Shown here one piece after another: positions 1-51,500 of a stretch of 64,000 bases of DNA. Source of the DNA: Proteromonas lacertae (taxonomy: Eukaryota); NCBI GenBank assembly GCA_002245135.1, contig NGBS01001188.1, positions 1-64,000 of the forward strand. The letters run 5' to 3'. The translations under genes were made by a program, and so were the position numbers. Within the stretch, counting starts at the first letter, position 1. Every line of letters begins with the position of its first letter. A model generated the notes under the pieces. That model had not been told where the DNA came from, ran no database searches, and worked only from the letters and a program-made list of their open reading frames with translations.

Positions 1-826
1 TGTAACAATGAAGAGTAATAGTTTAAGTGGAGGAACATTAAATATAGGTACAATCGAAAGTAGTGGTGGATCAAGTGATAAAATTAGTATATTGAGTAAT
101 GTGGATATGTCCAATCTAGTATTAAGTGCTGGAACAATCGAAGTTGTAACAATGAAGAGTAATAGTTTAAGTGGAGAACATTAAATATAGGTACAATCGA
201 AAGTAGTGGTGGATCAAGTGGTAAAATTGCGATAATGAATAACCTAGATATGAATGGTAAAAATGTAAATAATATAGGACAATTTGATTCAGAAGAACTA
301 TCTGGAAATACTTTAAGTATAAACAATATAAAAGTGTTAAGTGGTGGTTCAATAAAAATGTTGAGTAATGTGGATATGTCCAATCTAGTATTAAGTGCTG
401 GAACAATCGAAGTTGTAACAATGAAGAGTAATAGTTTAAGTGGAGGAACATTAAATATAGGTACAATCGAAAGTAGTGGTGGATCAAGTGATAAAATTAG
501 TATATTGAGTAATGTGGATATGTCCAATCTAGTATTAAGTGCTGGAACAATCGAAGTTTAACAATGAAGAGTAATAGTTTAAGTGGAGGAACATTAAATA
601 TAGGTACAATCGAAAGTAGTGGTGGATCAAGTGATAAAATTAGTATATTGAGTAATGTGGATATGTCCAATCTAGTATTAAGTGCTGGAACAATCGAAGT
701 TGTAACAATGAAGTAATAGTTTAAGTGGAGGAACATTAAATATAGGTACAATCGAAAGTAGTGGTGGATCAAGTGATAAAATTAGTATATTGAGTAATGT
801 GGATATGTCCAATCTAGTATTAAGTA
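1..826 (+). repeat. Coding tandem repeat, 144-nt unit, about 5 near-identical copies with one ~126-nt interruption
   Basis: tgtaacaatgaagagtaatagtttaagtgg recurs at 1, 145, 414, ~558 and 701; copies differ mostly by 1-2 nt deletions. Confidence 0.9.
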
Positions 827-1125
827 CTGGTACTCTTAATGTTGGTAATGTTAATGTTAATACAATTAGTGGAGGTTTTTTGAATGTTGATAATATTAGT
901 GTTGGTAGTATATCAATATGAATGTTAATGTTAATGAATTACTTTAAGCTTCCAATAATAGAACCTAGTTGTAATGAAAATGATGAAGGTGCAATATATT
1001 TTGATAAAAATAGTGGTGAAGTAAAGATATGTCACAATAAACAGTTTGTAGTATTAGCATTTACTCAACCAACCAATTCTCCTACTCCCACTACTAATCC
1101 AACTCCAACTAATATCAAACCATAG
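1..1125 (+). CDS. 3' part of a fibre-like repeat surface protein (family member 0); 5' end lies outside the window; several frameshifts
   Basis: Tandem 48-aa repeats (TMKSNSLSGGTLNIGTIESSGGSSDKISILSNVDMSNLVLSAGTIEVV). Segment NNLDMNGKNVNNI..LSGNTLSINNIKVLSGGS is homologous to gene A. Ends in cap FKLPIIEPSCNENDEGAIYFDKNSGEVKICHNKQF plus a Pro/Thr tail; stop TAG at 1123-1125. Confidence 0.75.
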
Positions 1126-2175: not shown

Positions 2176-2303
2176 TAAATTTCAAAAATACTCATTTGAG
2201 TATTTATAAACTTCAGCTCTTTTAATATTCTAGTTTTCATTATATTATAAACTAACAAAGTAAATGATAAATCATTAGTTAATATAAACATATCAAGTGT
2301 AAA

Positions 2304-2995
2304 GTGGTGGTTCAATCAATGTATACAATGATATTGATATGTTCAATAAAAATATATATCGTGAATAGTGTGACATGTTCAACACTGAATATAGGAACAA
2401 TTCAAAGTTTAAGTGGTACAACTGGAACAGTGAAAGTGTATATTAATTTAGATATGATTGGTGAAAACATAGTAAATGTAGGTACATTCAGTGGTACAAA
2501 TGGGGCGAGTTTCACAATAATGATGAATAGCAATTTGAATTTATTAGGTAAAAGCATTAGAAATATAAATACTATCAGTAGTGGTATAGATAATGTAGAT
2601 AATTTCAGTAGTGGAACAATGAAAGTTGAAAGTTTTTTTAAATTACCAACAAAATCTCCTACATGCAATGCAACAAATATAGGAACTTTGTGGTATGATA
2701 GTACTAATGGTCAAATTAAATATGTAATGGATCAACATTTAATGTCGTTGCATTTATTGGTGATCAATCATTAAATTTAGGAAATACTGGAACAATAACT
2801 GCTGGTAGTATGACAGTTGGAACGTTGACTGTAATTAACACATTTTCAGCTCCAAATTTAGCTGTAACTGGTGTCTTTAAAATACCTACATCATCAGTTA
2901 CTTGTAATACAGCAAATATAGGTGCTATGTATTTATCTGGAAGTAGTATTGGTGTTTGTACTAGTTCAGGAATGAAATCTATTAATTTTTACTAG
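2304..2995 (+). pseudogene. 5'-truncated chimeric fragment of the fibre-like family carrying two C-terminal caps in tandem
   Basis: TLNIGTIQSLSGTTGTVKVYINLDMIGENIVNV repeat, then cap FFKLPTKSPTCNATNIGTLWYDSTNGQIK (frameshift ~2720). From 2759 it is an exact copy of the gene A 3' end. No N-terminal or TM exons upstream. Confidence 0.7.
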
Positions 2996-3913
2996 TATAT
3001 ATATAAATTATTGTAATTATTTTAAATCATATAATTAATTATTAATATTATCAAAATTATATACTTATGAGATTGTAACATAAAACAAAATACATCATAC
3101 TCTAAAGTAGTAACAATTAATTAAAAATGTTTAATTAATTGAGTTTAGAATGATAGGAACGAACCATCTATGCTTTTAAGCATTTACAACCACAACTACA
3201 GTCGTTGTCATTCTTTATGCAGTTTTTACAACAAACACAATCACACTTACAACTTCGATCTTTACAGTAACAGCATTCTTTTCCACATTTACATTTCGTA
3301 TGACTTTCACAACTCTTCTTACAACAACTACAATCACACTCACATTTCGTTCCACATTTACAGCTTTCACAACTACAACTCTTGTCTTTACCACAACTAC
3401 ATACACCGTTTTCTTTACATGATGGATTATCGCATTTACCAGACATTTTCGACGATTATTTAGCTTCAAATAAGAAACTTCACAAAACAAAAATTCTTGA
3501 AAATAATATTAACGAAGTAAGAATATTCTCATTATCTTATTATTCTCACAACAATACAATATATTACATTGACATTGTATATCTTAATATATCTACTTTA
3601 CTTTTCACTTTCTTTGAAATATTCACCATAAACTTTGATATTACATCCATCTATCTATTTCAATATCATAATCACATTGTATATCAATTTGATGCATATT
3701 ACAAACAAAGTGACAAAAGATCTCTCCAACTACTACTCTAATCAACTATATCATTTTATCATCACTTTCTTCACTTCAATCTATAATCATATTAACAACA
3801 AATCACTTCCATATTATATCTATATAACAAATAACAACTAAAAACATCAATTCAAAATAGATTAACATAAACACATATAATTCAAATAGATAAACGATCA
3901 TTTTATTTTGACT
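2759..3913 (+). repeat. Segmental duplication, copy 1 (copy 2 is 8919-10073)
   Basis: Constant offset of 6160 nt; only 4 substitutions seen (3501, 3635, 3865, 3872). Contains the gene A tail, a metallothionein gene and the intergenic promoter region. Confidence 0.95.
3168..3446 (-). CDS. Metallothionein (MT1), 92 aa
   Basis: 29 Cys in 92 aa in CxC, CC and CxCxCxCC clusters; Lys/Ser-rich; a single aromatic residue. Confidence 0.9.
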   Translation of the reverse strand: MSGKCDNPSCKENGVCSCGKDKSCSCESCKCGTKCECDCSCCKKSCESHTKCKCGKECCYCKDRSCKCDCVCCKNCIKNDNDCSCGCKCLKA

Positions 3914-3972
3914 AACTAACTTATAATATTTATTTTATCTTTATTTTTAGTTGTTAAAGTATAAAAACAAAT

Positions 3973-6900
3973 ATGAGAAACCAATCAAATAGAACTCCTG
4001 TTCGTTCTCTAGGTATATAACTTATCATTATTTCTAAGTAGAAACTAATACACCAATTAGGGTAATGCCTAGAACTCCAGTTCGTTTTGATTCAAACCCA
4101 CAATATTCTAGTAAAAGAATGCCTGCGCCACCTATAGGTAAACCACGAAACGCAGACTCACTGAAATTAGAGTTTTTGGATGTTCCATCTCCATCTACTA
4201 GCTGTAGATCAAGTACCGTTGTACCATGTCCTTTAGAATCTGTAAATCAGAATAATACTTGTGGTAGTACAGAAAAAAGTAAAATAATTGTTGCAAACAA
4301 AACTAAACATGAGAAAGTTCGATCTTTTATTATAATGTTATGTTTACAATGTATAAAATAATAATAATAATGTAATTTGATAGTATTAATTAGTGTTTTA
4401 ATTCTCACAGTTTATACAATTGTGTTAGTGATTGTATGTAAATCCTATATAAAGAATCATTACAAAATCGAAATGAATGGTGATGTATTGAGTTTAAATT
4501 CATTAGAAGTTGGTCATTTTAATGGAGTTTACTCATTAGAGAATTTAAGGAAAGAATTAAAGAATGAAATAAAAGAAGAAGTGAAGAAAACAACATTAAA
4601 CCTTCGAAATATGAATGAAAATGAAGATAAAATAAAATCAAGTATATATTTATATGTTTTATTAATAATAATAATATAGAAAATGAATTATTTACAAATG
4701 CAGTGATTGATGAAAAGTCAAATCTGTATTTAAAAACAAAAGGATTATTAAGTGATGAAATAGAAATCGAAAAGAACAGTAATTTCAATGGAAATGTGAA
4801 ATTTGGAAGTGTAGGTAATGAAGCTGCTGTAGAAATCAATGGTAAATTAGAAGTGAAGAATGTAAAAGTGAAAGAAAAGATCGATTTGAGTGAAGCACGA
4901 TTTGAATATAATATAAATGATAAAAATCAAAATAGTCATGAGAAAGTCGAAATTGGTGAATTATCTGTTCATTCTTTGAACTATGCAACTGAATTCTGTA
5001 ATATCACATTAAATGATGAAACAAATATAAACAATATTCTATTAAAAGACAATACAATAAGTTCAACAAAGAATGATTTATACTTAAATACAATAGATCC
5101 AAAATGTAAAGTGATAATGAGTTCAAGTGAAATAAATGGTAATTTGAAGAGTAATTCAATCAGTGTAGATAAAATCGTAATCAATAATAATGAGATAAAT
5201 GGAATATCTTCAATCGATAGTGATAAAATCAATGTAAAAGTATTGAGTAACAATAAGAACTTAAATGAAAATGAAAATATAATATCTATAATCAACAATG
5301 TTGATATGAGTAACAAAGATATAAATAATATAAAAGAAATAAAAGCTAATACTATAAATAGTATAAACCTTAAAAGTGAAAATGAAGATATAAAAGTATT
5401 AAATAATTTCGATATATCAAATAAAAATATAAAAAATATAAAAGAAATAGTTTCAGAGCAAGTGAATGTAAAAGAATTGATAAATACCGATTTATTAATG
5501 AACTATATAAAAGTGAAGAACGATTTAAGTTTAGAGAATAACAACATAAAGAATGTTGATAATGTCATATCTTCAAATATTGAAGTTGATACTATAAGTG
5601 GTAAAGAAGGAGTAAAACCTATTGAAATAATAAACGATATGAATATCAAAGACAATACATTGAGTAGTAAAGTTATTCAAAGTACAACAGTTGGTGTATT
5701 GAATTTGAAAAATTATAATGATGATAATAGAAAGATAAATCTATTAAGTGAAATGGATGTAAATCAAAATGATATAAAGAATCTGAAATTATTGAATGTA
5801 AATACAATAGAGTTAGGAGAAATGAAGAGTAAAGACAATAGTGATATGAGAATGTTAAATAATTTAGATTTATTACAGAATAATATAAACAATGTAGAAA
5901 TATTAAATGTGAATAAAATCTCAAGCAAATTAGAAAGTATTGAAATTGGAAAATCATTAGATTTAAAAGAATCATCATTAACTAGTAAAAGTATAAAGAG
6001 TGAAGAGTTAAAAGTCAATACAATCAGTGTGAATTCACCAACAGCAAATAGTTTTATATCAATAAAAGACAATGTAGATATGAGTGAGAAATCATTAAAA
6101 CTGGATGAATTAAATGTGAAAAGATTAAATGGAATAGATGACACTGAAATTACTCTCTTAAGTGATATAAAAAGTGATAAAAAGTTATCCATAAATACAG
6201 TCGCAGTTAATAATCTACAATCGAATGGTAATGGCGATCCAATAAAAGTAAATTCCAATATAGATATGAGTGATAAAGAAATAAGAAATGTGAAAAACAT
6301 AGAAAGTGAAAGTTCAACAATCAATACAATTTATACCAATGTATTTACACCCAAAAATGGAAATGAAATTATTGTAAATAATAATTTAAGAGTTAAAGGC
6401 AAATTAATATCTTTAGATACCTCCAATGTAGCTGAATTAGGCAATGTAAGTTCTATCGTTGGTCCTTCTACTATCAATATAAAATCCAACTTAGATATGA
6501 ATGGTAAAAGTATTAATAATATTGAAAGTATTTATGTGCATAATATATACCCAAGAAATGGTAATGGATTGAGTGTATTTCTATATGGAACAGTTTCTAT
6601 GAATTCCTATCCAATAACAAATGTAGGAACAATAGAAGTAGCTAATGTAAAAAGTAAAGGTGTAAATTATGTTAAATATTTGAATAATATAGACATGAAT
6701 GGGAAAGATTTATATAATTTAATGAAATTGAATGTTGGTACAGTTGGTGGTTATTCAGATGGAAGTTCAATATCAATAGTAAGTAATGTTAATATGAACA
6801 ATAAAAATATACAAAATATAAATGAAGCTACTTCCAGGAAAACTTAATATTGGAACAATCAAAGCTGTAAATACAGCAATCAATATGGTTTCTTTATTAA

Positions 6901-9155
6901 ATATGAATAATAATGATATTGATAATATAAAATCAATCAAAGGAAATGGAAATGTAATAGCAGTTAATAGTAATATTAATATGAAGAATTGGTTAATGTC
7001 TATAGGTACAATTAAAGTAAATAATGAAATGTCTGTACCAAAAATCAGTAGTAATGTTAATGGAGGTAGTATAATGATAATGAATCATCTAACATCTAAT
7101 AATAAGAATATCAATAATGTTAATATCCTGACAGCTAATCAGATTAGTCCATCAACAATAAAACTAAGTAGTGGAGATATTAATATTGGAAGTGATTTAG
7201 ATTTTCATAATGATTATAAAGTTAAGAATCTAAAAGGATTAGAAATTAATTCTATTGATGCTGATTCATTGACAGTAGGTACGTTATCAGTAAAGAATCA
7301 ATTGAATATTGAAAGCATTAAGAGTATGACAAGTGGAACAATAACTGTTAGTAGTAATTTAAATCTTGATAATAATAAGATAATATATAATGTAAAAGAT
7401 ATAAAAACAGAAGATATTCATGTAAATAATGTTTTATATGTAGATAAAGTGAATTCTAAAGACCAAACTGTGAATGGATTTGTATCTATAGTAAGAGACA
7501 TAAATATGAATAGTAAAGATATTAAATCAATTAATGCAATGAGTAGTGGCAAAATGAATATAGGCACACTTCAAAGTAGTATAGGGAATACTGGTACAAT
7601 AAAGATAGATAGTAATTTAGATCTGTTAGGACATAATTTTGAGAATATAAACGGGTTTAAATCTACTAGTTTATCTGGTAATACGTTGAGTGTAAATAAT
7701 ATAAAAGTATTAACAGGTGGATCAGTTAATATAAAGGATAATATTGATATGACAAACAAAAATATATATAGAATAAACGAATTAAGTTCAGGAATAATCA
7801 ATGTAAATACAATAAATAGTGGTAATGGTGTAAGTGAAATTGTAGTTTCAAATAATGTTAAGTTGATATCAAATACTATGACAGCTGGTACTCTTACAGT
7901 AATTAATTCTATCACTACTGGAACAATAACAATTGGAACAGCATATGTTAATACAATCACATCAACAAGTGGTGAAATATCTGTAACAAAACCATTGAAT
8001 ATGAAATTAAATGAAATTAAATCAGTTAGTAAAGTAACTGCAACAACTGCTTCAATTAGCTATTTAGACTCTGATATTTCTACAATTACTGTACAAAAAG
8101 CATTGGATTTAGGAGTATATTCAATTTCTACTACAGGAACAGTGAATGCTGGAACAATAAATTTAGGAAATAATGGAGAAGTAACTACAGGATCATTTAG
8201 TGCAACAACTGCATCAATTAATACATTAACATCTGGTTCTGGTGAAATTACTGTTATTAAACCATTGAATGTAGGAACTAATAAAATAACATCTACAGGA
8301 GAAATATCTGCTAATGTATTAACAGGTACAACAGCAACAATAACAACAGCAACAATAACAACTGCCAAGATTAGTACTTTATCATCAATTGCAACAGGAA
8401 ATTCAATAAATGTTAATTCACCATTGAGTTTAGGAACTAATGGAATTACTTCTACAGGAACTATTACTGCATCATCAGTCTCAGCTACAACTGCAACAAT
8501 TAATACACTAACAACAAATGCTGCTGAAATTACAGTTAGTAAACCATTAAATTTAGGAAGTTATAAACTAACTGCAAATAATTTCCAAGCAACGTCTGCA
8601 ACAATTACAGCAGGAACAATTACAACTGGTACAATTAATACACTAACATCTAGTGGTAGTGAAATTACTGTTATTAAGCCATTGAATGTAGGAACTAATA
8701 AAATAACATCTACAGGAGAAATATCTGCTAATGTATTAACAGGTACAACAGCAACAATAACAACAGCAACAATAACAACTGCCAAGATTAGTACTTTATC
8801 ATCAATTGCAACAGGAAATTCAATAAATGTTAATTCACCATTGAGTTTAGGAACTAATGGAATTACTTCTACAGGAACTATTACAGCTGGGAAGTTGGTA
8901 ATAGGAGGAACAACAGTAGGTGATCAATCATTAAATTTAGGAAATACTGGAACAATAACTGCTGGTAGTATGACAGTTGGAACGTTGACTGTAATTAACA
9001 CATTTTCAGCTCCAAATTTAGCTGTAACTGGTGTCTTTAAAATACCTACATCATCAGTTACTTGTAATACAGCAAATATAGGTGCTATGTATTTATCTGG
9101 AAGTAGTATTGGTGTTTGTACTAGTTCAGGAATGAAATCTATTAATTTTTACTAG
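3973..9155 (+). CDS. Type II membrane fibre-like repeat protein A (~1700 aa)
   Basis: ATG 3973; introns 4013-4041, 4351-4383 and 4642-4679 join exons in frame. Pro/Ser/Thr-rich N-tail, TM FIIMLCLQLLISVLILTVYTIVLVIVC, many NxD[ML]xxKxIxN[VI] repeats, Thr/Gly-rich region, cap FKIPTSSVTCNTANIGAMYLSGSSIGVC. One frameshift near 6835. Confidence 0.85.
8244..8884 (+). repeat. Intragenic direct repeat of ~224 nt (8244-8467 and 8661-8884)
   Basis: Offset 417 nt (139 codons); one synonymous mismatch seen; encodes EITVIKPLNVGTNKITSTGEIS...GITSTGTIT. Confidence 0.9.
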
Positions 9156-10073
9156 TATATATATAAATTATTGTAATTATTTTAAATCATATAATTAATT
9201 ATTAATATTATCAAAATTATATACTTATGAGATTGTAACATAAAACAAAATACATCATACTCTAAAGTAGTAACAATTAATTAAAAATGTTTAATTAATT
9301 GAGTTTAGAATGATAGGAACGAACCATCTATGCTTTTAAGCATTTACAACCACAACTACAGTCGTTGTCATTCTTTATGCAGTTTTTACAACAAACACAA
9401 TCACACTTACAACTTCGATCTTTACAGTAACAGCATTCTTTTCCACATTTACATTTCGTATGACTTTCACAACTCTTCTTACAACAACTACAATCACACT
9501 CACATTTCGTTCCACATTTACAGCTTTCACAACTACAACTCTTGTCTTTACCACAACTACATACACCGTTTTCTTTACATGATGGATTATCGCATTTACC
9601 AGACATTTTCGACGATTATTTAGCTTCAAATAAGAAACTTCACAAAACAAAAATTCTTGAGAATAATATTAACGAAGTAAGAATATTCTCATTATCTTAT
9701 TATTCTCACAACAATACAATATATTACATTGACATTGTATATCTTAATATATCTACTTTACTTTTCACTTTCTTTGAAATATTCACCATAAACTCTGATA
9801 TTACATCCATCTATCTATTTCAATATCATAATCACATTGTATATCAATTTGATGCATATTACAAACAAAGTGACAAAAGATCTCTCCAACTACTACTCTA
9901 ATCAACTATATCATTTTATCATCACTTTCTTCACTTCAATCTATAATCATATTAACAACAAATCACTTCCATATTATATCTATATAACAAATAACAACTA
10001 AAAACATCAATTCAAAATAGATTAGCATAAATACATATAATTCAAATAGATAAACGATCATTTTATTTTGACT
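8919..10073 (+). repeat. Segmental duplication, copy 2 (copy 1 is 2759-3913)
   Basis: Direct sequence match at offset 6160. Confidence 0.95.
9328..9606 (-). CDS. Metallothionein (MT2), identical protein to MT1
   Basis: Same 92-aa Cys-rich ORF, inside the duplication. Confidence 0.9.
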   Translation of the reverse strand: MSGKCDNPSCKENGVCSCGKDKSCSCESCKCGTKCECDCSCCKKSCESHTKCKCGKECCYCKDRSCKCDCVCCKNCIKNDNDCSCGCKCLKA

Positions 10074-10324
10074 TTAAAAATTGTTTTAATAAACTCATTA
10101 GCAGGATGTTTGGAGAATTAATAGTTTATTATTATAAATATAGGATTAAACTATTGGTATTGTTAAATATAAATTTAACATCAAATTATGAAATTTCAAA
10201 TAGAATAGCTTTAGTTGCATTATTAATGGAATTTATAACAAGAAAAAAGAAACATGTATATTGAAAGAGTATAAATTAATAATTGTTTATATATTAATTA
10301 GTAGATAATAATGAAGAGAATGGT

Positions 10325-10603
10325 TTAAGCTTTTAAACATTTACACCCACAGCTGCAATCGTTATCATTCTTTATACTGTTTTTGCAGCACAAACAATCG
10401 CATTTACAATTTCTATCTTTACAATAACAGCAATATCTACCACATTTACACTTTGTATTACTTGCACGACTTTTTTTACAACAGTCACACTTACATTCAC
10501 ATTTTGCATCACATTTGCAGTCATCACAACTACATGTCTTATCCTTATCACATGTACACACTCCGTTTTCTTTACATGATGGATTGTCGCATTTACCAGA
10601 CAT
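10325..10603 (-). CDS. Metallothionein (MT3), diverged paralog
   Basis: 92 aa; same MSGKCDNPSC start and NDNDCSCGCKCLKA end; many synonymous changes relative to MT1. Confidence 0.9.
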   Translation of the reverse strand: MSGKCDNPSCKENGVCTCDKDKTCSCDDCKCDAKCECKCDCCKKSRASNTKCKCGRYCCYCKDRNCKCDCLCCKNSIKNDNDCSCGCKCLKA

Positions 10604-10646
10604 TTTTGATGATTCTATTGATTAACAGAGAAGAATTGTTATAAAA

Positions 10647-10672
10647 TAAGAATATTCTTAATCTTCTCAGAA
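10647..10672. promoter_or_regulatory. Candidate stress/metal response element upstream of MT3
   Basis: 14-bp palindrome TAAGAATATTCTTA (nGAAnnTTCn) plus TTCTCAGAA; related motifs lie upstream of the other three MT genes. Confidence 0.45.
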
Positions 10673-11036
10673 CAATCTGGAATGTTATGTTAATATTGTC
10701 TTATGTATTTTGTCTTATTATATATTTCCATACATGCATGCAATTAAAAATGTGTAGTTATCTGTCCATTTTGATTTTTCAATGATTACTATATAATAAA
10801 ATGAACATGCCATATCACAAAACTATATATTTCTAATTGATAAAGTGGGATATTACATTTTTATTGTATGAGTGTATTTTATTAATTGGAATTTACTATA
10901 CTCTATAGATATAGTAATGTAGGTTATAGTTATGTTATTATATAACAATCAATCTAACAATCAAACACAAAACATCATACATCGAGACAATGGTTATTAA
11001 TTAATACACTTAATTAACTGATAAGGATATTATCAT

Positions 11037-11318
11037 TTATGCTTTACAGCATACACAACCACAACTACAATCGTTATCATTCTCTATAGCTGTTTTACAG
11101 CAGATGCAATCACAAACACAACTTCGATCTTCACAATAGCAGCTCTCCTTTCCGCACTTACATTTAGTATGACTGTTAAGACTCTTTTCACAGCATTTAC
11201 AATCACATGCGCACTTTACATCACATTTGCATTTTTCACAACTAGAATCTACGCCTTTTACTCCACAATTACATACACCCTTCTCTTTGCATGAAGAATT
11301 ATCACATTTTCCTGACAT
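11037..11318 (-). CDS. Metallothionein (MT4), 93 aa
   Basis: Start placed at MSGKCDNSSC by homology with the paralogs; Cys pattern largely conserved. Confidence 0.9.
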   Translation of the reverse strand: MSGKCDNSSCKEKGVCNCGVKGVDSSCEKCKCDVKCACDCKCCEKSLNSHTKCKCGKESCYCEDRSCVCDCICCKTAIENDNDCSCGCVCCKA

Positions 11319-11717
11319 TTTTATCGGTAGATTTTGAAGAAATAGCAAAAGTTGATAAAAAGAGTTTTTGAGAAGAAAACAGAATAAAAAAGAACAAATA
11401 TATTCTCTTAATTATTCTCAGAAGGATAAAAAATATTACAGTTCTATACTCCATCTTATAATTTTTAGTTTAGTTAAACAATTAAACACAGATTCTCACT
11501 ATTCCACGAACCAATCTACTTCTGTACATTCATTCCATAAATGTATATTTACTGATTAAATAATGGGTCAGTTTTTTCATATGAATGATTACTTTTTAAA
11601 TTCTTTCAATAATTCCACGTTAACTTCACATGAGTTAGAATTATAATATTTAACGTAAGAACAACCATAAATTATACCCATAGCACATCTATATAATAAA
11701 CATCCAAAATATCTCTT

Positions 11718-11778
11718 GTCAAAATAGATTAGAATATGTGTTATTTACTAAAAATATATTCATAAATTCTATTTTGAC
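11718..11778. promoter_or_regulatory. Inverted motif pair GTCAAAATAGA...TCTATTTTGAC upstream of fibre-like gene B (also before A and C)
   Basis: Perfect 11-bp inverted repeat here; CAAAATAGATT/AATCTATTTTG at 15935-15991; TCAAAATAGA/TTTATTTTGA at 3852-3911. Confidence 0.55.
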
Positions 11779-11834
11779 TCAAGTGTCAGTTATATTGTTT
11801 TTTCTTTATAATTTCATCTATCTAACATAATATT

Positions 11835-14800
11835 ATGAAATCGTTTTATAAAAATAATCCTTCTGTCTCTTCCCTAAGTATGTTAGTTATTATTATATTG
11901 TAGCTCCAAAAACTCCAAATAGAATAGTAGTGAGGCAACCTGTACATTTTGAATCAGCACGATTTGATTCTGCAAGAAAAATCCCAATTCGTCAACCAAC
12001 TGCTCCACGAAACGCAGACTCACTGAAATTAGAGTTTTTGGATGTTCCATCTCCATCTACTAGCTGTAGATCAAGTACCGTTGTACCATGTCCTTTAGAA
12101 TCTGTAAATCAGAATAATACTTGTGGTAGTACAGAAAAAAGTAAAATAATTGTTGCAAACAAAACTAAACATGAGAAAGTTCGATCTTTTATTATAATGC
12201 TTATGTTTACAATGTATAAAATAATAATAATAATGTAATTTGATAGTATTAATTAGTGTTTTAATTCTCGCAGTTTATACAATTGTGTTAGTGGTTGTAT
12301 GTAAATCCTATATAAAGAATCATTACAAAATCGAAATGAATGGTGATGTATTGAGTTTAAATTCATTAGAAGTTGGTCATTTTAATGGAGTTTACTCATT
12401 AGAGAATTTAAGGAAAGAATTAAAGAATGAAATAAAAGAAGAAGTGAAGAAAACAACATTAAACCTTCGAAATATGAATGAAAATGAAGTATAAAATAAA
12501 ATCAAGTATATATTTATATGTTTTATTAATAATAATAATATAGAAAATGAATTATTTACAAATGCAGTGATTGATGAAAAATCAAATTTATATTTAAAAA
12601 CAAAAGGATTATTAAGTGATGAAATAGAAATCGAAAAGAACAGTAATTTCAATGGAAATGTGAAATTTGGAAGTGTAGGTAATGAAGCTGCTGTAGAAAT
12701 CAATGGTAAATTAGAAGTGAAGAATGTAAAAGTGAAAGAAAAGATCGATTTGAGTGAAGCTACGATTTGAATATAATATAAATGATAAAAATCAAAATAG
12801 TCATGAGAAAGTCGAAATTGGTGAATTATCTGTTCATTCTTTGAACTATGCAACTGAATTCTGTAATATCACATTAAATGATGAAACAAATATAAACAAT
12901 ATTCTATTAAAAGGCAATACAATAAGTTCAACAAAGAATGATTTATACTTAAATACAATAGATCCAAAATGTAAAGTGATAATGAGTTCAAGTGAAATAA
13001 ATGGTAATTTGAAGAGTAATTCAATCAGTGTAGATAAAATCGTAATTAATAATAATGAGATGAATGGAATATCTTCAATCGATAGTGATAAAATCAATGT
13101 AAAAGTATTGAGTAACAATAAGAACTTAAATGAAAATGAAAATATAATATCTATAATCAACAATGTTGATATGAGTAACAAAGATATAAATAATATAAAA
13201 GAAATAAAAGCTACCTCATTAAACAGTGTTTATTTAAAAGTGAAAATGAAGATATAAAAGTATTAAATAATTTCGATATATCAAATAAAAATATAAAAAA
13301 TATAAAAGAAATAGTTTCAGAGCAAGTGAATGTAAAATGAATTAATCAATACAAATGGATTGATAAATGTGAAGAACGATTTAAGTTTAGTAGAATAACA
13401 ACATAAAGATGTTGATAATGTCATATCTTCAGAAATATCGAAGTTGATACTATAAGTGGTAAAGAAGGAGTAATACAAACCTATTGAAATAATAAACGAT
13501 ATGAATATCAAAGATCAATACTCTGAGTAGTAAAGTTATTCTAAGTACAACAGTTGGTGTATTGAATTTGAAAAATTATAATGATGATAATAGAAAGATA
13601 AATCTATTAAGTGAAATGGATGTAAATCAAAATGATATAAAGAATCTGAAATTATTGAATGTAAATACAATAGAGTTAGGAGAAATGAAGAGTAAAGACA
13701 ATAGTGATATGAGAATGTTAAATAATTTAGATTTATTACAGAATAATATAAACAATGTAGAAATATTAAATGTGAATAAAATATCGAGTATTTTACAGAA
13801 AATCACAGTTGAAAAAGAATTAGATTTAAAAGACTCTTTAACCACCAGTAAAAGTTTAATAAGTAAAGAGTTAAAAGTCAATACAATCAGTGTAAACTCA
13901 CCAACAGCAAATAGTTTTATATCAATAAAAGACAATATAGATATGAGTGAGAAATCATTAAAACTGAATGAATTAAATGTGACTAGAATAAATGGTATAA
14001 ATGGAAAAGAAATAACTGTTTTAAGTGATATAAAAAGTGATAAAAAGTTATCCATAAATACAGTCGCAGTTAATAATCTACAATCGAATGGTAATGGCGA
14101 TCCAATAAAAGTAACTTCCAATATTGATATGACTAATAAAGACATTAAGAATGTAATAAATATTCAAAGTGAAACTTCAACAATTACCAAAATTAGTACC
14201 AATACAATAGAACCAAAAAGTGGCACTGATGTTGAAGTAAAAGGTAATTTATTAGTAAGAGGACATCAAATCCAACTTGGAACAGCAACTATTGACTCTT
14301 TATCTGATCTAAGGTCAATAGCTGGATATGAAGGTAATTTATTAGTTGAATCAGATTTAGATATGAATGGAAAGAATATAAAGAATGTATTAAATCTAAA
14401 TGTTGGTAAAATTGGTGTATATCCTGCAAGTAGTAAAATATCAGTTGTTAATGATATTTTAATGAATAGTAAAGATATTGGAAATATAAAAGAAATGACT
14501 GCTGGAATATTGAATATTGGAACAATCAAAGTGGTTGGTCCTGGTTCAATCAATATGATTTCTTCAATAAATATGAATAACAATGATATAGTAGATATAA
14601 AATCACTTAAAGGAAAAGCCAATACATTAACAGTAGAATCTGATATAAAAGTAAGTGATGCTTATAAATTAACTGCAAATACAATCAATGTAAAGACGAA
14701 TAGGAAGTATCCTATCATCTCCATTAACTATTGATAACAATGTAGAGATAACTAAAACATTAAAAGTTAATGATATTACTTTTCGTACAGGAAATACTGT

Positions 14801-15823
14801 AAAAATAGATAGCATTTTGGATTTAAATAATCACGAGTTAGCTAATGTTGGTTCATTTTCATTATCGAAAATAAATATTGCTGAAATTGAAAGTAAAGTT
14901 CTAGGTAGTGCTATTAAAGTATCATCGAATTTAGATTTTCAAGGAACAAAGAATATAGAAAAACTGAATGAAGTAACAGCTAATACAGTGAATGTAAAAA
15001 CAAGTTTAAAATTGATGAAAATAGAATCATCAGATAATTCAAATAAAGTGATTAATGTTTATGGTGTTTTAAACTGTCAAAATAACGATGTAAAGAATAT
15101 AAATATATTAGAAACAACTACATTGAAAGTAAATACACTTCAATCTAAATCTTCATCACCAGTGAATGTCAATAATAATTTGGATTTAGGAAGTAATGAT
15201 ATTAATAATGTGAAAAGTTTATATGTAGATGCATTATATTCAAAATCAAATAATCTTATTACAATCAATCATGATATTCAATTCGTTTCAGGTAAAGGAA
15301 TAACTTCCTTACCAAAGTTAGTAGTTAGTGAAATAGCGAATAATGGAAATAATGTAAATGTTAAAGATGATATTAATATGAATAGTAAAGATATTAAACA
15401 GTGAATCAATTATCAGCTGCTTCTATTATTTTATCTCAAAGTATTCAAGTTCCAACTATTACTAATGGAGCTAGCGCTGTAGTGTTTAATAGTAAAGTAA
15501 ATATGAATAGTAATAGTATAGAAGGAGTTAATACTCTAACAACTACTAATGTAGAATGTAATCAAATGAAGGTAACAAATATTGCAACTACTGACCCTTC
15601 TATTTTATTTTCAAATGATTTGAATTTAGACAATAGCAGGAATATAGTAAATGCCAATAAAATTAATGCAAATGAAATCTCAGCAACAACAATGAAACCG
15701 TCTAAATTGGTTATTCCAGCATGTAATTCGGCTGAGAATAATGTTTTATGTTTTGATGGTGGTAGATTAGTTTATTATAATGGTTCTACAAAAATGTACA
15801 TTTCTACTAGTACAATTCCTTAA
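11835..15823 (+). CDS. Type II membrane fibre-like repeat protein B; multiple frameshifts (assembly errors or pseudogene)
   Basis: ATG 11835; intron 11878-11903 in frame. ~12004-13780 is nearly identical to 4143-5918 of gene A; unique first exon and distal half; cap KLVIPACNSAENNVLCFDGGRLVYYNGS. Indels near 12200, 12490, 12760, 13240-13560, 14700 and 15400. Confidence 0.75.
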
Positions 15824-16057
15824 ATATCTTAAAATGTATAAATTACATATAGTCTATTTAATTTATTATATTTTTTTACTATTGCTTGTTGTTTTAAATG
15901 TTTTTAAAAAGAAAATATTTGAAACGGTAAAAATCAAAATAGATTTTATCACTTTAATATAAATACCTATTTTTCTTTGAAATCTATTTTGGAAGTCGGT
16001 TATTTTTTCTTTTTCATCTTGTTAATTAATTAGTTAAAATCTGTTAATATAATAAAC

Positions 16058-18553
16058 ATGGATTCTCGTAATTGTGATACACCTAAAAGGTTTTCGAGTA
16101 TTTTATATAGAATATTATAAAATATAGATAATAGCCCTTCCGTTAGTTGCAAAGCTAGATCTGGGTATGGTTTACAAACTATTAAAGTAAGTCCTGCTCC
16201 AACAAATTCTCAACCTCCAATTGTTATGATTACCCCAAAGAAGGATGATGTAGATTTTCTTGATGTTGAAACACCTCGTAAAGCTAGTAATGCTAATGCT
16301 TCAACTAATATATTTTACTATAACGATAAAGGAATAGGAACTGAAGATAATACAAAGAAGCCATTTGACAAGGAAAAGTTCAAGAAATTTTGTTGTATAG
16401 GATGGTTAATATGTATATAATAGATATATTGCTATATTCTCAATAGTTTTTTTAATAATCGTAATATTAGTAATCTACACATTTATACTCTATGCCATAG
16501 CTACAGCATTCTTAAGATCTAACTACAAAATATCAATCGATGGAAATGTACTTCATTTAAACTCATTAGATGTTGAAAGGTATTATAGCAACTATATTGA
16601 TGCAACTCAACATCAACAAACCAGCAGAATATTAGAAACAACAGGAAATGAATCAAAAACAAAGAATATTAGAGAAGAGAAAAAATCAAATTTCAATCCA
16701 AAGCTTGTCAAATCTTCAAATCGTCAGCATAATAGACTTATTATTGATAATGACAATGAATTGCATTTAAAAACAAAAAGTATAGAAAGCCAAAATGCAT
16801 ATGTGGATGGTAATACTGAATTTTTTGGAGATGTAAAATTCGGTAATTCAACAAAACCAGTAAATGTAGCAATCGATAATGGAGATTTGAAAGTAAAGAG
16901 TTTAAAAGTAACTGATACAATTAATTTAGAAAAAGCAAAATTTGTATGGGATGCTGAAGATCAATTTACAGGTGAACAATATAAGAATGTAAAATTAGGT
17001 GAAATGAGTATAAAAACGTTGAATATAGAGAGTAAAGTATGTAGTGTAGATGCAAGTAGTGTTACAAAGATTAACGGTGTATTATTTACATCTCCAAATA
17101 AGATATCAAGTGATGGTGATTTAACAATTGAACCAAGTGATGTTAATACTAAAAGAGTGATTATTAACGGAGAAACAGAAATGCAAACTATCAGTTTAGG
17201 AGCTGTTACTGATGGTGGAAAGATTTACGTTGGATTAAAAGATAGAACATTTTATGATAGGGATTCATCAATTATGAAATTATATATAAACGAAAATAAA
17301 CAATCAGTTGTTGATACTTATGCTGTTGATGTTCAAAGTACAATTAAAACTTTATCAATATATACTGATACTATTGGAGTTAGAACAACTACAGCTACTC
17401 CTGAAAATGATATAATTAAAGTATTGAATTCTATAAATGCAGATGGTCAAACAATATTTTCAAAAACTATAGATGCAAATAATGTAAGAATGAATAGTAT
17501 TGAATGTCGAGAAGCTGATAGAAATAATGATGGTATAAGATGTAAAGATAGTGTCATGTTGAGTGTTAATGAAATTGTTAATATGAATGATTACAGTATA
17601 AGAAATGTTAATGAATTACATGTAAAATCAATTGTTAGTAGTTCTACTTCAATAGCTTTGAAGAATGACTTGGATTTAGGTAATAAAAATATAAATAATG
17701 TAAAGACTATTACTGTTGAAAAAATCCAATCAACAGGAGATGATATTAATATTCTTAGCAATATTAAGGCTGATGGTAAAACAATGACAGCTAAATCAAT
17801 TGAATTAACTGATTCTATTTCAACACCGAAAATAGAAACAACTGCTATTTCTATAACAATTAAAAATGATTTAGATCTTGGAGGTAATAGTATAAAATCA
17901 GCAAATGAAATTACTTCAACAACATTGTCAGTTAATTCATTATTGACAAATAATATTTCAGGAAAAGTCCCAGCCAATCCAATTAATGTTAAGAACGATT
18001 TAAATCTTGGAGTTAATAGTATTACAGCCAAATCAATTATTTTGACTGATTTAAAAACTTTAGAAATATCAGGAAATGGTGGTGATGTTAAAGTTAAGAG
18101 CAATTTAGATCTTCAAAATAAAAATATTGTAAATACAGGTGAAATAAAAGCATCAAAAATGTCAATTACTGGAGTTACTACTACAAATACATTATCTGCA
18201 ACTACATCTATATCTACACCAAAAATTGATACAGTTGCTGACAAAAATTACTGTTGGAAAAACATTAGATCTTGGTGTAAACGATTTAGAAACAGCAGGT
18301 GAAGTAAAAGCTAATATTTTATCTGCATCTACATGCAATAACATCAGATTATACACCAGCAACATAACTGTTACGGTAAAGCAGTAGTTAATAGTATTGT
18401 TGTGGTAGATTCAATTAAAACTTCCATGTAGTATCATCTGTAGCTTGCTACAACTGCGCAGGATAAGAGAATACAATATTTTATTCTGGTAAATGAAATG
18501 TATATATGTATTGGAATATGCGCTAAAAATAGTAAATCAGAAATTCCCCTTAA
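16058..18553 (+). CDS. Type II membrane fibre-like repeat protein C (divergent paralog); 3' end frame-disrupted
   Basis: ATG 16058; introns 16098-16127 and 16413-16446 at the same positions and phase as in gene A. TM WLIFFLIIVILVIYTFILYAIATAFL, then NYKISIDGNVLHLNSLDVE (A: HYKIEMNGDVLSLNSLEVG); KNDLDLGNKNINNV repeats. Cap recognisable only through indels after ~18240, so the end is approximate. Confidence 0.75.
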
Positions 18554-18651
18554 ATTTGATTTATATAATTATATAATTTTTTATATTAATTTTTTTATTT
18601 ATGTATTTATTTTACAAAACAAAATATAAAATATATATAATTATCTCCATC

Positions 18652-37056: not shown

Positions 37057-37090
<34 letters not shown>

Positions 37091-37686
37091 AAGGATTTAT
37101 TGAAAATTCACATCGATTTCCATCAAATGAAGGAGATATTATTATTGAGGATTAAAAAAAATGATCATTCAATAATATCTCCTTCATTTGATGGAAATCG
37201 ATGTGAATTTTCAATAAATCCTTTATTGTCAAATGATTTATATATATATTTATTTATATTATAAAATAGAAAGAAAGAGCTCGAATAGAAGAATGTGGTG
37301 GTTGTGTTTTTAAAGCTCCACATAAAGGAATAAAAGGTGAAGATCGAATGTGGGTAAAAGATTGCTTATATCCCGGTTTAATGGTTAGTAGAAGTTTAGG
37401 TGATTCAATAGCTCATGAAATTGGTAATATCACAATGCCAGATACTGTCAAAATGGAATTGACAGTTAATGATGATATCATTATTATAGGAAGCGATGGA
37501 ATTTGGGATGTATTGGATAATGATCAAGTTATTGATATTATTAATACATTGAGGAGTGAAGGAAGTGATGTTAGTGTGTATTGTAAAGAATTATTGAAAT
37601 TTTGTTTAGAAGGATGGAAAATAAGGAACGCAAGTGATAATATTTATATTACCGTTGTTATGTTGCATCATAATCAACTTATTTAA
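35795..37686 (+). CDS. Protein phosphatase 2C (PPM family), probably N-myristoylated
   Basis: MGGCITK start; ENQD, VFDGHG, SGCTA, SNVGDSRA, TDH..P/KERARIEECGG, GLMVSRSLGD, GSDGIWD and DNI motifs. Several introns, including 37057-37269. Confidence 0.95.
37087..37227. repeat. Perfect 57-bp inverted repeat with a 27-nt loop inside a PP2C intron
   Basis: 37087-37143 is the exact reverse complement of 37171-37227; preceded by a (TA)n run at 37058-37087. Confidence 0.97.
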
Positions 37687-45501: not shown

Positions 45502-48500
45502 ATGAACTATTTCTTCATATTCTTTTTGTCTATATGTATAAATTCAGTAAATATTGTTATAATAGGTATTACTGCTTCGATTGAGCAGAATGCAGAAAAG
45601 AACTCAACTGAAAGAGGTATAAAACAGAAAATGAAAGGATCTGGATTGAATATAGAATTACCAATCGGTGAGAATGAGGTTGTAAATGATGAAGCGACAA
45701 ATAGAATCGTCTCAGCTTGTGATGGTTCAGATCATATAGTTTCCCTTTATTATGAGACAGAAAATAGGTAATAGATTACTTCCTGACAAGATGAATGAAA
45801 ATATGAAAATTGAAGAATTCAGTTTATATTTAGGTGAAAAGAAGATTGACTTGTCAAAGCTGTTTAAATCAGAAGTAAAGGATGGTAGACAATCTACTAC
45901 AATATGTCTTGAAGAAGGTATTTATGAAATTAGTAAGAAGTGAAGAAAGAAAAGAAAGATGGTCATTAGATATTCTGAGGATTGAAATTGAAAGGTAAAA
46001 CCATTGCAGCAATAAATATGAATGATTTGAAGGAAGGAGAGGTTGTGAAAGTAAATATAGGAAGTTCTAAAGAAAAGAAGTCTTCTGTAAGACAATTAGT
46101 TAGCTATATTGTATTAGCAGAAAGTAGTGAATGGGGATATTCGTTTAAATCACAAGATGGTATTTCTTGGAATAATGAAGAGAATGATTGGATAAGTTAT
46201 ATTCCAACAGGTTATCCGATCAAAACCGCAATTACCACTTATTATCGAACTAAATTCATTCTTCCTGATATATCAGCAATGAATGGTCCAATCTTGAAAG
46301 TGAAATATACTGATGGTTTAATAGTTTATGTAAATGGAATAGAAATCTTTCGAAAGAACATGCCGATTAGGAGAAATAACTTCAGAAACCAAAGCCATCA
46401 AATCATTTTCTACAGTTATTGAATCAACAATAACAATTCCTCAATCAATAATCAAAAGTTTTGACAATTTTCATAGGAATAGAAATTCATAAAAGTGAAT
46501 CAAGTCCATTTAATCAAGAAGACAAATTCTCAGCTTCAATTGAAACAGTTGATAGAGGATTGTATTCACAAACAACAGCATCTAATGTAGATATAACAGT
46601 AAGATCACAAGCTGGAAATGTACCTACGATAGGAAATCTTCTAACTAACATGTTTTCTATAAATACAGGTTCATTGTGGAGTTACTTTAGATAGATTAGG
46701 AGCAGCAAAGTGGTTTCCAATGAATTTCAATTTTACATTTAGAAATCATGTAGCTAAGTATGTAAATCAATTTAGAATAAGTGGATGTTCAAATAATGAT
46801 TTTACTCATCCACAGAACATAAAGATATATGGTTCAGTTGATAGTGAGAATATAAATTGGATATTACTTTTTGAAAATACAAATTTGGGTTTATCAGTAA
46901 AAGATTGTAGTACTCTTTCAACTTATGCATTAAATCCGGTTAATAAAGCTTTTGAAAGTTATAGATTGGAAGTTATAACTACAAATCAATATACTACAGG
47001 TGAAACGCAATGGGGACATTATATTCAATTCAAATTATTTATATTAGATGAAAAACCACTTTCCATATGTCAAGCAAATGAGAATTATCCTTCTACTAAT
47101 ATTGGAATGACTTCAATTGCTTATTGTGGAAGTGGATATAAAGAAGTAACATGTGGAAATGGTGGATCATTTGAAGCTGAAGATGATCATGGATGTGATA
47201 ATGATTTAATCAAAAGTGAATGGCAATATACTGATTCTGCACCATCTTCTGATAAATGGAATAATGAATATATCGATGGAGATAATGGGTGGATAAAGAA
47301 ATCTTCATCATTTCCTGATTTTACATCATCTATTAGATATTATCGAAATTATTTTATGATAAATGATTTATCAGTAAGTGGATCACCCAAACTGAAAATC
47401 ACATATCAAGATGGTATAAAGATATATATAAATGGAAATGAAATATTCAAACGAAATTTGAATGGAAATATAATAGTTCCATTTGCTTCAGCAACTGAAG
47501 AAACAATATTAATTCCTTTACCTGTTTTATTGAATGGAAGAAACATAATTGGAATAGAAATCCATAAATCTGATTCATCAGGTGTAGATCCGATTGATTG
47601 TTTCATTAGAATATATGAAATTGACAATAAGTACAGTAACAACATTAGATACAGTAAATGTGGATGAAATTGGTTTAGAATCTCTGAAAACGGGAAAAAC
47701 ATGTATAGATAAAGAGATTTGGATAGAGTATTAGTATTTAGTGATGTTAAGCACTGATCAAAATCGTGATTTTTGTAGTATTACAATAGAAGAGGCGAAA
47801 AAAAGGAGAGTATTTTCCATTTTATATAACATACAAATTCAATGAATATAATGCTTTTTATTTCAATGAATTTAAGATAAGTGGTTGTAGTAATAATTAT
47901 GATAATCATCCAAAGAATATAAAGATATTAGGAGCAACAGATAAAGATCATCCAGAATGGGAAGAACTATATTCCAATACTGAATTTAGGATTAAAGGTA
48001 CAGCAAAATTAGAACAGTGTAATGAAATTAAAACCTTTCCATTAAGAAATGTAAGAAAATCATATGAAAGTTACAGATTAGAGGTTGTTGATACACTGAA
48101 AATTATGATGCAGAATTGTATGGAAATTACATTCAATATAGATTGTTTATATTAAATTCAATTTCACTTCCTGTTTGTTATAGTTATGATGGTTTTGAAA
48201 AAGTATTTGCTGGTGAAACATCAATAATGAAATGCCAAAGTGGATATAAAGAAAGAAGATGTTTAGAGAATGGAATATGGGAAGATGCAATAACAGATCA
48301 TGAATGTAAAATGGTAAATTATTATATCTCAACCAAACCATATCATCAAAATAGTATTACATTAGAAAAAGAAATAAAATCCTTATCAATAACAATCCCA
48401 GGATTAACATATAGTGGAAATACACTTACATTGAAAAGTGATGAAGAATTAGAATATGTTAAAACAACAATCATAACCTTCAAAGATGATTCAACAGCTG

Positions 48501-51500
48501 CTGTTTATGTGAGTGTATTGAGAAATGAAGTGAAATGTGATTATGGATTTGAATCAATCAATTTATTTGAGATGGAATATGATTTGAGATTGAAATGTAA
48601 TATTCAACCATTTGTAAGTAAAATAGAAAATTTACCTAGTGGATTGAAATATGGTAATAATGGGAGAATAACAGGCCGAATAACCGATGTAAGTAAAGAA
48701 ATAACAACGAGAGTGATTCTTCAATCTAATAAAGAGTTTGATATAACAATAGAATGGAAAAAAGGAGGTAGTTTAGAAAAAGGATTAGAATTTGTATTAT
48801 GGAGTAGATCAGAACAAGATGGAATGACTGTTGATAATGATTTTAAAAGTAAAAGTTTAAATGAAATGTGGTTAAAATTTGAAAATGGTTATTATGATGT
48901 AAAAGATCCAATGACAATAACAAATGCAGAAATTACATATTCTAATACTGCGCCTTCATGTTTAACAGATTATTGGATTCCATGTCAAAGAGTTGTAGCA
49001 AGAATAAGAGGTTATTTATATATTGATGAAGAAGGTGATTATGTATTATCTGGAAAATCTGATGATAGTCAAAAATTTGCTTATGGAAATTTTGAAGTAG
49101 AAAGATATACAACAAATAATTGGGATGATGAAATAGACTTTCCAATTCATTTAGCCAAAGGATATCACACCGTTGGATATTTATCATGGGGTGGAGATTA
49201 TGGAAATGGTTTTATAGCAAATTACAAAAAGTCAGGAGGAAGTAAGTCAAATATTAATAATATAATGTTTAGTGGTGGATTTCTATTAACTCATTTATCA
49301 TATGGAGTTAATACAATAATATATGAAAAAGGAGTGAGTAAAACATTAATACCATCTTATGAAGGATATCCATCAAAATGGTCAATGAATCCTTCAATAG
49401 CTGGTTTAAGTTTGAGATTAGATGGAGCATTAATTGGATTTCCAACAACATGTGATAATGAGTTTAAATCAATTGAGATAAGTTCGAATGGTGAAATTGA
49501 TATTTCAAAAACAAATATTCAAATAATCTGTTATAATGAAAATGACAAATTGAATAAAATAAATGGATTATTAGTGAAATATTATACTGCGAGTAGTGTG
49601 AAAATTGATGTATTTGAAGAACCAGAATCAGCTGTTGATTCAAAATTGATGTTAGAAAGAATAGAAACTTCATCATTATTCCTTTCAAAGAATGAAGAAT
49701 TATGGAATCATTTATTTATAGCAGATTATGTAGGATATTTATATATAGAAAGAAGTGGAAGTTATAAACTGAGATTGAAATGTTATGACTATTGTAAAAT
49801 GATATTAGGATCTGATATAGTGTTTGAAGGAATAGGAAGTGGTTTACATGAAATAGATAAAGCAATGGAATTAACAAACCAACTATACAAATTAAGAATA
49901 GTTTATAGCAAAAGTGGAAATGATAATATGAAAGAATTAGAATTATTATATGAAGAAGATGGATTATATAAATCAATTCCAAAAGAATGGTATTACACTG
50001 ATCAACCATATCCATTCATTTATTCATCAATAAATAGTAAATATTACATTAATGATGAAATATCAAATACAATAATTAATCAAAATGTTGTATTAGAAGG
50101 ATATAAATATTCAATTGAACCATCATTACCAATTGGATTATCAATATCTGAATTGACAGGTGAAATCTCAGGAGTAGTAAGTGAAATAGACAAACAGAAA
50201 GCTTATACAATAACAGCTGAGAAAGATTCCTCAAAATATTATTCAGAAATAATAATGGAAGTAAATGAACAAGTAAAACCACAAATTGCATATCCAAATA
50301 ATGGTTTGAGAGGAATAGTTGGTAATAGTATTACATTATCACCATCCTCATCCAATGTAGTATGTGATATATTATCTATATTAACACCAATTGAGAGTAT
50401 ATCTATTGATTCACAAGGTGTTATAACAGGTAGAAGTGATGAACCATATTCTGGAACAATGCAAGTAAAATGTACAACTTATAATACAATGACTATTGAT
50501 GTGAAAATTGAAATAGCTTGTGGTGAAGGAGAAGACTTTCTAATAATGGATTATTTAATCAAAAGTCAACCAGAGAGTGTGGAATCTAGAAATATTGAAT
50601 GGAGAAAGATCAATATATTCATCTTCAAGTGAAAAATCATTAGAAGCTGATAAGATTTATACATTTATGAAATGTATTACAAAAGAGAATAATCAATTAA
50701 AAATAACCTCAAATTCCTATTTAGGTGGTTGGTATAAATTGTTTTATGAAAATCGAAATATGTTTAAATATTCCTCATTCTTCAGAGATGAAACACTTGC
50801 AATTAATATGATTCATTCAAGTAATAAACCAGAATTAAGTTACGAATCAAGCTTATTTGAATTGAGCAATGAAATCTATTATGAGTTTTATCCATCAATT
50901 AAAAATGGAGGAAAGATATTTGAAATAACAAATGAAGATAATTTACCAGTTGGAATGAAATTTGATAAAGAAAGTGGTTTAATATCTGGAATTCCAACAG
51001 AACCATCTGAATCAAAACAAATCAAAATAAGAGTGAAGAATATGCCAAGTGGAGAAGTGAGTGATGAATTAACATTGACATTTTCAAGTGATGTTTGTAA
51101 GAAAGTATTCTTTGAAGTAAATTTATTCATTCGAAGTGGTGATGAAGGATTTATAACATACAAGATGAAGAATGGAGAAAAAGAAATTCAATTATTTGAT
51201 AAGAAAGTTGGTGAGAATAAGAAATATTTCTGTGAAGATGGAAGAACATATGAATTGAGTTTAGGAAGCACAGGAAATGAAATATGGGAATATAGTGAAA
51301 TGAGATTACAAATATTACATGATGGAGTAGTGTTATTTAGAGGAAGAAATATGGATGGAAAAAGTGAATCTACAGTGAAAATAAATACAAAAAATCTAAT
51401 TCCATTTAAAAATCCAATGAAATATAGTGAAGAAATTCAACAAAATAATGATTGGAATGAATTATCCTATGATTCAAGTAAATGGATAAGTGTGAATGAT

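Follow-up and report, generated by a model that had tools for sequence, protein, structure and literature searches.

An array of metallothionein-like genes among fibre-like genes in Proteromonas lacertae, and the probable single origin of its head-to-head pairs

In the tandem arrays of yeast CUP1, pieces of a neighbouring gene (RSC30) ride in the repeat, as described in the available part of one account (PMC4232551). A different arrangement is found in C. elegans, where mtl-2 and T08G5.1 form a head-to-head pair, are co-induced and depend on one HZA enhancer, according to the accessible text of that report (PMC12239621). The mechanism proposed for the present locus in an earlier note, a promoter shared by a metallothionein (MT) gene and its neighbour, would therefore be of a known kind, to the extent that this text describes it. 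As a regulatory module the locus is probably ordinary, since both passenger-carrying MT arrays and MT genes in head-to-head pairs are already known; no literature on an MT/surface-fibre gene pair was found by title or abstract.

Gene content of the window

The window analysed here is the whole 64,000-nt stretch of Proteromonas lacertae contig NGBS01001188.1 (positions 1 to 64,000). It has a GC content of 22-29%, carries eukaryotic housekeeping genes and contains short GT-AG introns, which measure 26-38 nt in the fibre genes. An AT-rich lineage resembling Blastocystis, as characterized in the accessible part of PMC10690189, would fit the low GC, the short introns and the ordinary stop codons. 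The TGTTTGTT motif occurs 10 times in the 64 kb, approximately once per 6.4 kb, and is rarer than the approximately one per ~3 kb reported, in the text available, for human Blastocystis subtypes. A scan of the 64 kb against Rfam gave no match.

From left to right the locus comprises the fibre tail W, a dispersed repeat (1277-2107), the fibre fragment X, MT1, fibre gene A, MT2, MT3, MT4, and fibre genes B and C, where "fibre" is a fair working label for the repeat proteins and not a result. The fibre genes are all on the plus strand and the MTs (4/4) all on the minus strand, so that an MT with a fibre gene on its right is head to head with it by construction. Fibre sequence was found only within 1-18.6 kb of the window, and the four MTs are the only small Cys-rich ORFs in its whole length.

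MT1 (3168..3446, minus) encodes a metallothionein-like protein of 92 aa with 29 Cys, and the coding sequence of MT2 (9328..9606, minus), which has no fibre gene upstream, is identical to it. MT3 (10325..10603, minus; 92 aa, 27 Cys) and MT4 (11037..11318, minus; 93 aa, 26 Cys) are 82% and 74% identical to MT1, respectively. Operationally, metallothioneins are defined by a length of at most 300 aa, 15-35% Cys, less than 10% aromatic residues and CxC or CC motifs, in the portion of PMC7216689 that was available. By that published definition the four proteins qualify in size (92-93 aa), in Cys (26-29, or 28-32%) and aromatic content (1-2 residues), and in CxC/CC motifs that are kept among the copies. 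Each protein is Lys-rich and has 13-14 CxC, 3 CC and 0 CCC, MT1 has two CxCCK, and 25 Cys are common to MT1, MT3 and MT4. They differ in this from both Tetrahymena subfamilies as given in the accessible text of PMC1808422, because subfamily 7a has mostly CC or CCC clusters and subfamily 7b essentially no CC clusters. The dN/dS ratios of 0.04 (MT1/MT3) and 0.11 (MT1/MT4) are rough because dS is near saturation; judged by these values, the MTs are real coding genes under purifying selection. Metallothioneins also bind metal in thiolate clusters and are metal-inducible; for the present proteins the composition suggests metal binding, and they would act in the cytosol as metal-thiolate proteins, buffering Zn, Cd or Cu. 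Searches for relatives, which are weak for short Cys-rich proteins, gave no match in Pfam, NCBIfam or PDB and a best Atlas lead of 0.82; a word-seeded search of the 50-161 aa members of a 5.8-billion protein set gave none, and a metagenome contig scan with the MT alignment gave 66 pattern matches, none of them confirmed, and no syntenic locus.

Three of the fibre genes have their 5′ ends inside the window. Gene A (3973..9155, plus), as modelled from the sequence, encodes approximately 1690 aa and has introns at 4013-4041, 4351-4383 and 4642-4679 and one frame break near 6836. Gene B (11835..15823, plus) has many one-base indels, and its positions 12005-14262 are 94% identical to A; this 2.2-kb tract, whose first kilobase differs by only 6 substitutions, is likely a conversion tract. 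Gene C (16058..18629, plus) is 28% identical to A, and its 3′ end is uncertain, with frame breaks after 18230. Of W (1..1125, plus) only the 3′ part, with the repeat and the Cys-containing tail of A and with several frame breaks, lies in the window, the 5′ end being beyond it. X (2283..2995, plus) has frame breaks and no 5′ part, and at 2759 its own tail domain runs into a copy of the A tail. Near-identical internal repeat expansions are present in W (1-833, unit of ~138 nt) and in A (8205-8887, 266 nt at 96%), which shows that the fibres have recently grown longer through duplication of units.

Other features of the window were also recorded. The dispersed repeat has two inverted copies (1277-2107 and 62690-63557) that are 87.6% identical, contain no long ORF and have palindromic AGGTT/AACCT-rich ends nearby; the left copy stands directly before the 5′-truncated X, and the element is possibly a non-autonomous transposon. 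At 46018-59818 the plus strand carries a series of very long ORFs, whose domains include PA14/GLEYA, putative Ig and teneurin-like EGF; they form a second set of likely surface proteins, and part of the series is duplicated internally (54048-54405 / 56610-56967, 73%). A self-complementary stretch of approximately 200 nt (37058-37259, 86%) lies in the region of a PP2C phosphatase gene.

Origin of the head-to-head pairs and of the 1155-bp duplicate

Head-to-head starts less than approximately 1 kb apart are one mark of bidirectional promoter pairs, and both pairs of the window have this spacing when it is counted from the start codons. The earlier note had placed the pairs correctly, MT1 (3168-3446, minus) with the ATG of A at 3973 (plus) and MT4 (11037-11318, minus) with the ATG of B at 11835 (plus), and its approximate gaps between start codons are exactly 526 nt (MT1/A) and 516 nt (MT4/B). 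It had left out MT2 and MT3, which stand between both pairs and neither of which faces a head-to-head fibre gene, as well as a 1155-bp repeat and the MT-less fibre gene C. Thus, pairing involves 2/4 MT genes and 2/3 of the fibre genes whose 5′ end is inside the window.

The MT1-A spacer (3447..3972, 526 nt) and the MT4-B spacer (11319..11834, 516 nt) align from end to end, with a global z of 7.6 (0/300 dinucleotide shuffles reached the score), and the MT-proximal, middle and fibre-proximal parts gave z of 6.2, 4.1 and 3.5, scores reached by 0, 0 and 4 of 1000 shuffles, respectively. Identity is low, at 69.5% of the aligned columns versus 65.4% in shuffles, and yet the spacers, which had been described as diverged, are collinear homologues. 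The ATGs of A and B each open a first exon that is followed by a short GT-AG intron, phase 1 in both genes, and the 5′ ends of the two genes are homologous as well (z 7.1). Together with the synonymous sites of MT1 and MT4, which are near saturation (pS 0.66), these results support the suggestion of an old duplicated unit. Because the spacers are homologous, the similar gap is an inherited length; it reflects one event and not two, and is no independent sign of function. The 3′ flanks of the MTs are also homologous, with z of 2.0-3.0 for 130 nt, a level per length similar to that of the spacer, which indicates no clear excess of constraint in the middle of the spacer over that in other non-coding flank.

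Passive co-duplication, which the earlier note had named as the alternative to its shared promoter, fits these data better, since the pairs are one event and both gene types also occur unpaired. We consider it rather probable that the pairs descend from one ancestral MT-spacer-fibre block in a tandem array and were passively co-duplicated, with two separable back-to-back promoters in the spacer. Unequal recombination and gene conversion would have copied and trimmed the block. No remnants of lost fibre tails were found between the MTs (z -1.4 and 1.2).

The most recent copying is visible in the 1155-bp duplicate, whose copies at 2759..3913 and 8919..10073 are 99.65% identical and differ by 4 transitions and 0 gaps, with all differences in the spacer. 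Each contains the last 237 nt of the gene A coding tail, an MT and 467 nt of spacer, and the 5-kb body of gene A stands between them. The left copy runs on naturally into gene A and the right copy continues naturally from the gene A body, and the outer junctions are new, where the tail domain of X is joined to the tail of A at 2759 and where the spacer is cut at 10073. This junction pattern would be the expected remains of a trimmed tandem array or of a conversion tract. The duplication made MT2 and brought with it a fibre tail and most of the spacer, but no fibre gene. MT2 has indeed kept nearly the whole spacer (467 nt), yet faces no fibre gene.

Near-identical copies in an error-prone assembly might also mean that misassembly produced the repeat, and hence MT2 or the MT1/A junction. 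We regard this as extremely unlikely, because the four differences are all transitions without an indel, unlike the one-base indels elsewhere, and the MT1-spacer-A junction is collinear with MT4-spacer-B. For the latter reason the pairs are independent of whether the 1155-bp repeat is real.

With the newest duplicate a complete MT was gained but only the tail of a fibre gene, and the MTs are intact, with the low dN/dS given above, whereas all five fibre loci (W, X, A, B and C) have frame breaks. These two observations would be explained if selection for MT dosage drove the array by CUP1-like amplification and most of the fibre sequence were passenger debris, X and possibly B being pseudogenes. 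The state of the fibre genes makes this very unlikely as a full account. Gene C has a full-length relative, P0012 on a 3.1-kb contig, which is 57% identical over 605 residues, and in gene A stretches of 719 and 770 codons are still open. In addition, the single-copy acetyl-CoA carboxylase gene of the window is broken by an in-frame TAA (61749-61751), which falls inside a region matching P0278 at 83% identity. As TAA serves as the stop codon of other genes in the window, this one is likely an assembly error, and with a single-copy gene broken in this way the frame breaks of the fibre genes are likely assembly errors as well. The dosage explanation is partly compatible with descent from one block with separable promoters.

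An inverted repeat before the fibre genes

An inverted repeat, CAAAATA(GATT) ... TATTTTG, lies upstream of 3/3 fibre genes with a visible start. Before A it occupies 3853..3910 and starts 120 nt upstream of the ATG, before B it occupies 11720-11776, within the MT4-B spacer, and starts 115 nt upstream, and before C, with perfect 12-nt arms, it occupies 15935..15991 and starts 123 nt upstream with no MT nearby. An orphan copy (10013..10070) with no fibre gene after it is found near MT2, and the right copy of the 1155-bp duplicate ends 3 nt past its right arm. The pattern CAAAATA-N40-46-TATTTTG, which was chosen post hoc after inspection of the data, occurs 4 times in 64 kb (at these same sites) versus 0.05 expected. 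The inverted repeat is absent upstream of MT3, and the upstream region of C is otherwise unrelated to both spacers (z 0.3 and -1.1). Since C is a distant and MT-less gene with unrelated upstream DNA, the inverted repeat goes with the fibre genes and is not specific to the paired arrangement. It is likely a promoter element of the fibre-gene family, and would probably consist of two inverted protein-binding half-sites. An RNA hairpin was considered and is not favoured, as the sequence of the arms is preserved, with no compensatory changes, and A folds only weakly; the values, folding energies taken without shuffle control, are -4.9 (A), -18.0 (B) and -12.9 (C) kcal/mol.

On the other side of the spacer, the MT promoter may lie within the first 130 nt upstream of each MT. 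The upstream regions of MT3 and MT1 are alike in the MT-proximal 130 nt (z 3.7), which includes a loose block containing TGAGAA, and share nothing further away (z 0.0). This proposal rests on a loose alignment, given that the homology of MT3 and MT4 in their first 130 nt is not significant (z 1.5) and that no exact 8-mer is common to the three MT upstream regions. The metal-response motif of animals, TGCRCNC, occurs in neither spacer, a negative of little weight beyond animals.

These results bear on the possibility that the spacer contains one shared, orientation-independent element, through which metal or oxidative stress induces the MT and the fibre gene together, and that the pair is kept by selection. 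Several observations favour such an element and count against separable promoters: the start codons are only ~520 nt apart; the spacers are alignable throughout, including the middle 260 nt, and are 10 nt apart in length despite near-saturated synonymous sites; the fibre-side inverted repeat is dyad-symmetric and could act both ways; and it is whole in the MT2 copy, where the recent duplicate stops just beyond it, as if MT2 needed the element. Precedents are the C. elegans pair (PMC12239621) and the bidirectional CUP1 promoter (PMC5486974), each as presented in the available portion of its source. Nevertheless, we judge a shared element to be unlikely, because the pairs have a single independent origin, 2/4 MTs are unpaired, and the inverted repeat is ~400 nt from the MT start versus 115-123 nt from the fibre start. 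The shared bidirectional promoter of the earlier note is not supported either, since MTs and fibre genes are each found without the other and the most strongly conserved element stands before the MT-less C and is missing at MT3. If co-regulation were true, a protist would link the remodelling of its cell surface to the sensing of metals. The locus has built-in controls in C, which is without an MT, and in MT2 and MT3, which are without a fibre gene. The preferred explanation remains one block with two separable promoters.

Fibre proteins and comparison with known systems

The plan of the A protein is an N-terminus of approximately 115 residues, one hydrophobic segment, a long repeat stretch and a short Cys-containing end. 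A, B and C each have one hydrophobic 19-mer (mean 2.6-3.2) at a distance of approximately 115-130 residues from the N-terminal end; hydrophobicity outside it is at most 1.15 in A and C. The fibre genes thus likely encode type II membrane proteins with a repeat ectodomain, an orientation deduced from this plan. The products would be membrane-anchored rod-like surface proteins, probably intertwined beta-strand trimers. The repeat is ~31-39 residues long where regular (~35), and a profile of it (A3, made from 36 window repeats) matched 209 of 1.84 billion proteins at E<=0.001, with 28 at 1e-10; P0012, the relative of C, is among the matches. Peptidase_S74 is present in 7 of the best 150 of these 209, most being without annotation, and 7 of the best 30 matched PHROG tail or tail-fibre families, a match that may lie outside the repeat.

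The window fibre proteins themselves had no direct significant match in PHROG, Pfam, NCBIfam, PDB or phage genomes, and their Atlas leads were below 0.9. A Pfam search of the C-terminal parts of A, B, W and X gave no S74 chaperone, a search among longer proteins with the gene A residues from 4682-6838 gave no homologue, and a metagenome scan with gene C gave 114 pattern matches, 0 confirmed, and no syntenic locus. A single-sequence model was uninformative (pLDDT 36.5), and an alignment-based monomer model (pLDDT 60.8) was extended with almost no intrachain sheet; Foldseek found nothing at E<=0.001. In VIA all rows were insignificant (Z at most 2.6); 3/5 were phage or injection-system spike or baseplate chains, and the best was the Mu central spike (Z 2.6, rmsd 5.3, 79 aligned). 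The insignificant rows of both comparisons speak against none of the families listed. Phage and injection-system spikes are trimeric beta-helices. No description of this fibre family was found by title or abstract, and supplementary gene tables may list such genes.

The window repeat is shared with phage and giant-virus tail-fibre-like proteins, including fibres that bear Peptidase_S74. Unlike the phage proteins, the window proteins have introns, a predicted cytoplasmic N-terminus and one membrane segment, and no S74 domain. Architecture gives a second likeness, to the beta-, gamma- and delta-sarcoglycans, which are type II proteins with a beta-rich ectodomain that co-fold as a triple beta-helix, as stated in the available part of PMC12871233. 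Type II single-pass topology, a beta-rich ectodomain and a Cys-containing C-terminal end are features of both as far as that part describes them, the first two as predictions for the window proteins, and for these the triple beta-helix is only a prediction as well. These are several times longer, built of repeats and without Sarcoglycan_1 (PF04790; at E<=10 neither the window pieces nor P0012 matched), and a repeat-sharing protein, P0066, scored 29.7 against this family, below the cut-off of 32.5, so that the analogy is one of architecture only. The fibre family is a candidate for a structural component of the surface coat of a protist, with a repeat that is otherwise found in metagenomic and phage-like proteins, and together with its putative promoter element it is a more interesting outcome than the MT pairing. 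That surface fibres of intron-bearing, membrane-anchored trimers, of at most ~1700 residues and with a phage-fibre-like beta repeat, are in addition switched together with metal stress through the symmetric element is quite unlikely.

With mtl-2/T08G5.1, within what the accessible text of that report covers, the locus shares the head-to-head position of an MT and an unrelated gene; it differs in that co-induction is hypothetical here and in that the conserved element is also present at an unpaired fibre gene. The likeness to CUP1, for the part of that literature available, is closer. MT genes have been multiplied locally with flanking DNA in both, the piece of the neighbour being RSC30 there and a fibre tail here, and the near-identical copies MT1 and MT2 carry a fragment of the neighbouring gene as in a CUP1-type array. 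Unlike CUP1, the repeats are not contiguous head to tail, and the MT copies differ in age (74-100% protein identity) and are interspersed with complete long genes for surface proteins. In a CUP1-type array, copy number also varies and determines metal resistance. On this comparison, drawn from one stretch of DNA, the locus would behave as a CUP1-type array with passengers, without the contiguous repeat.
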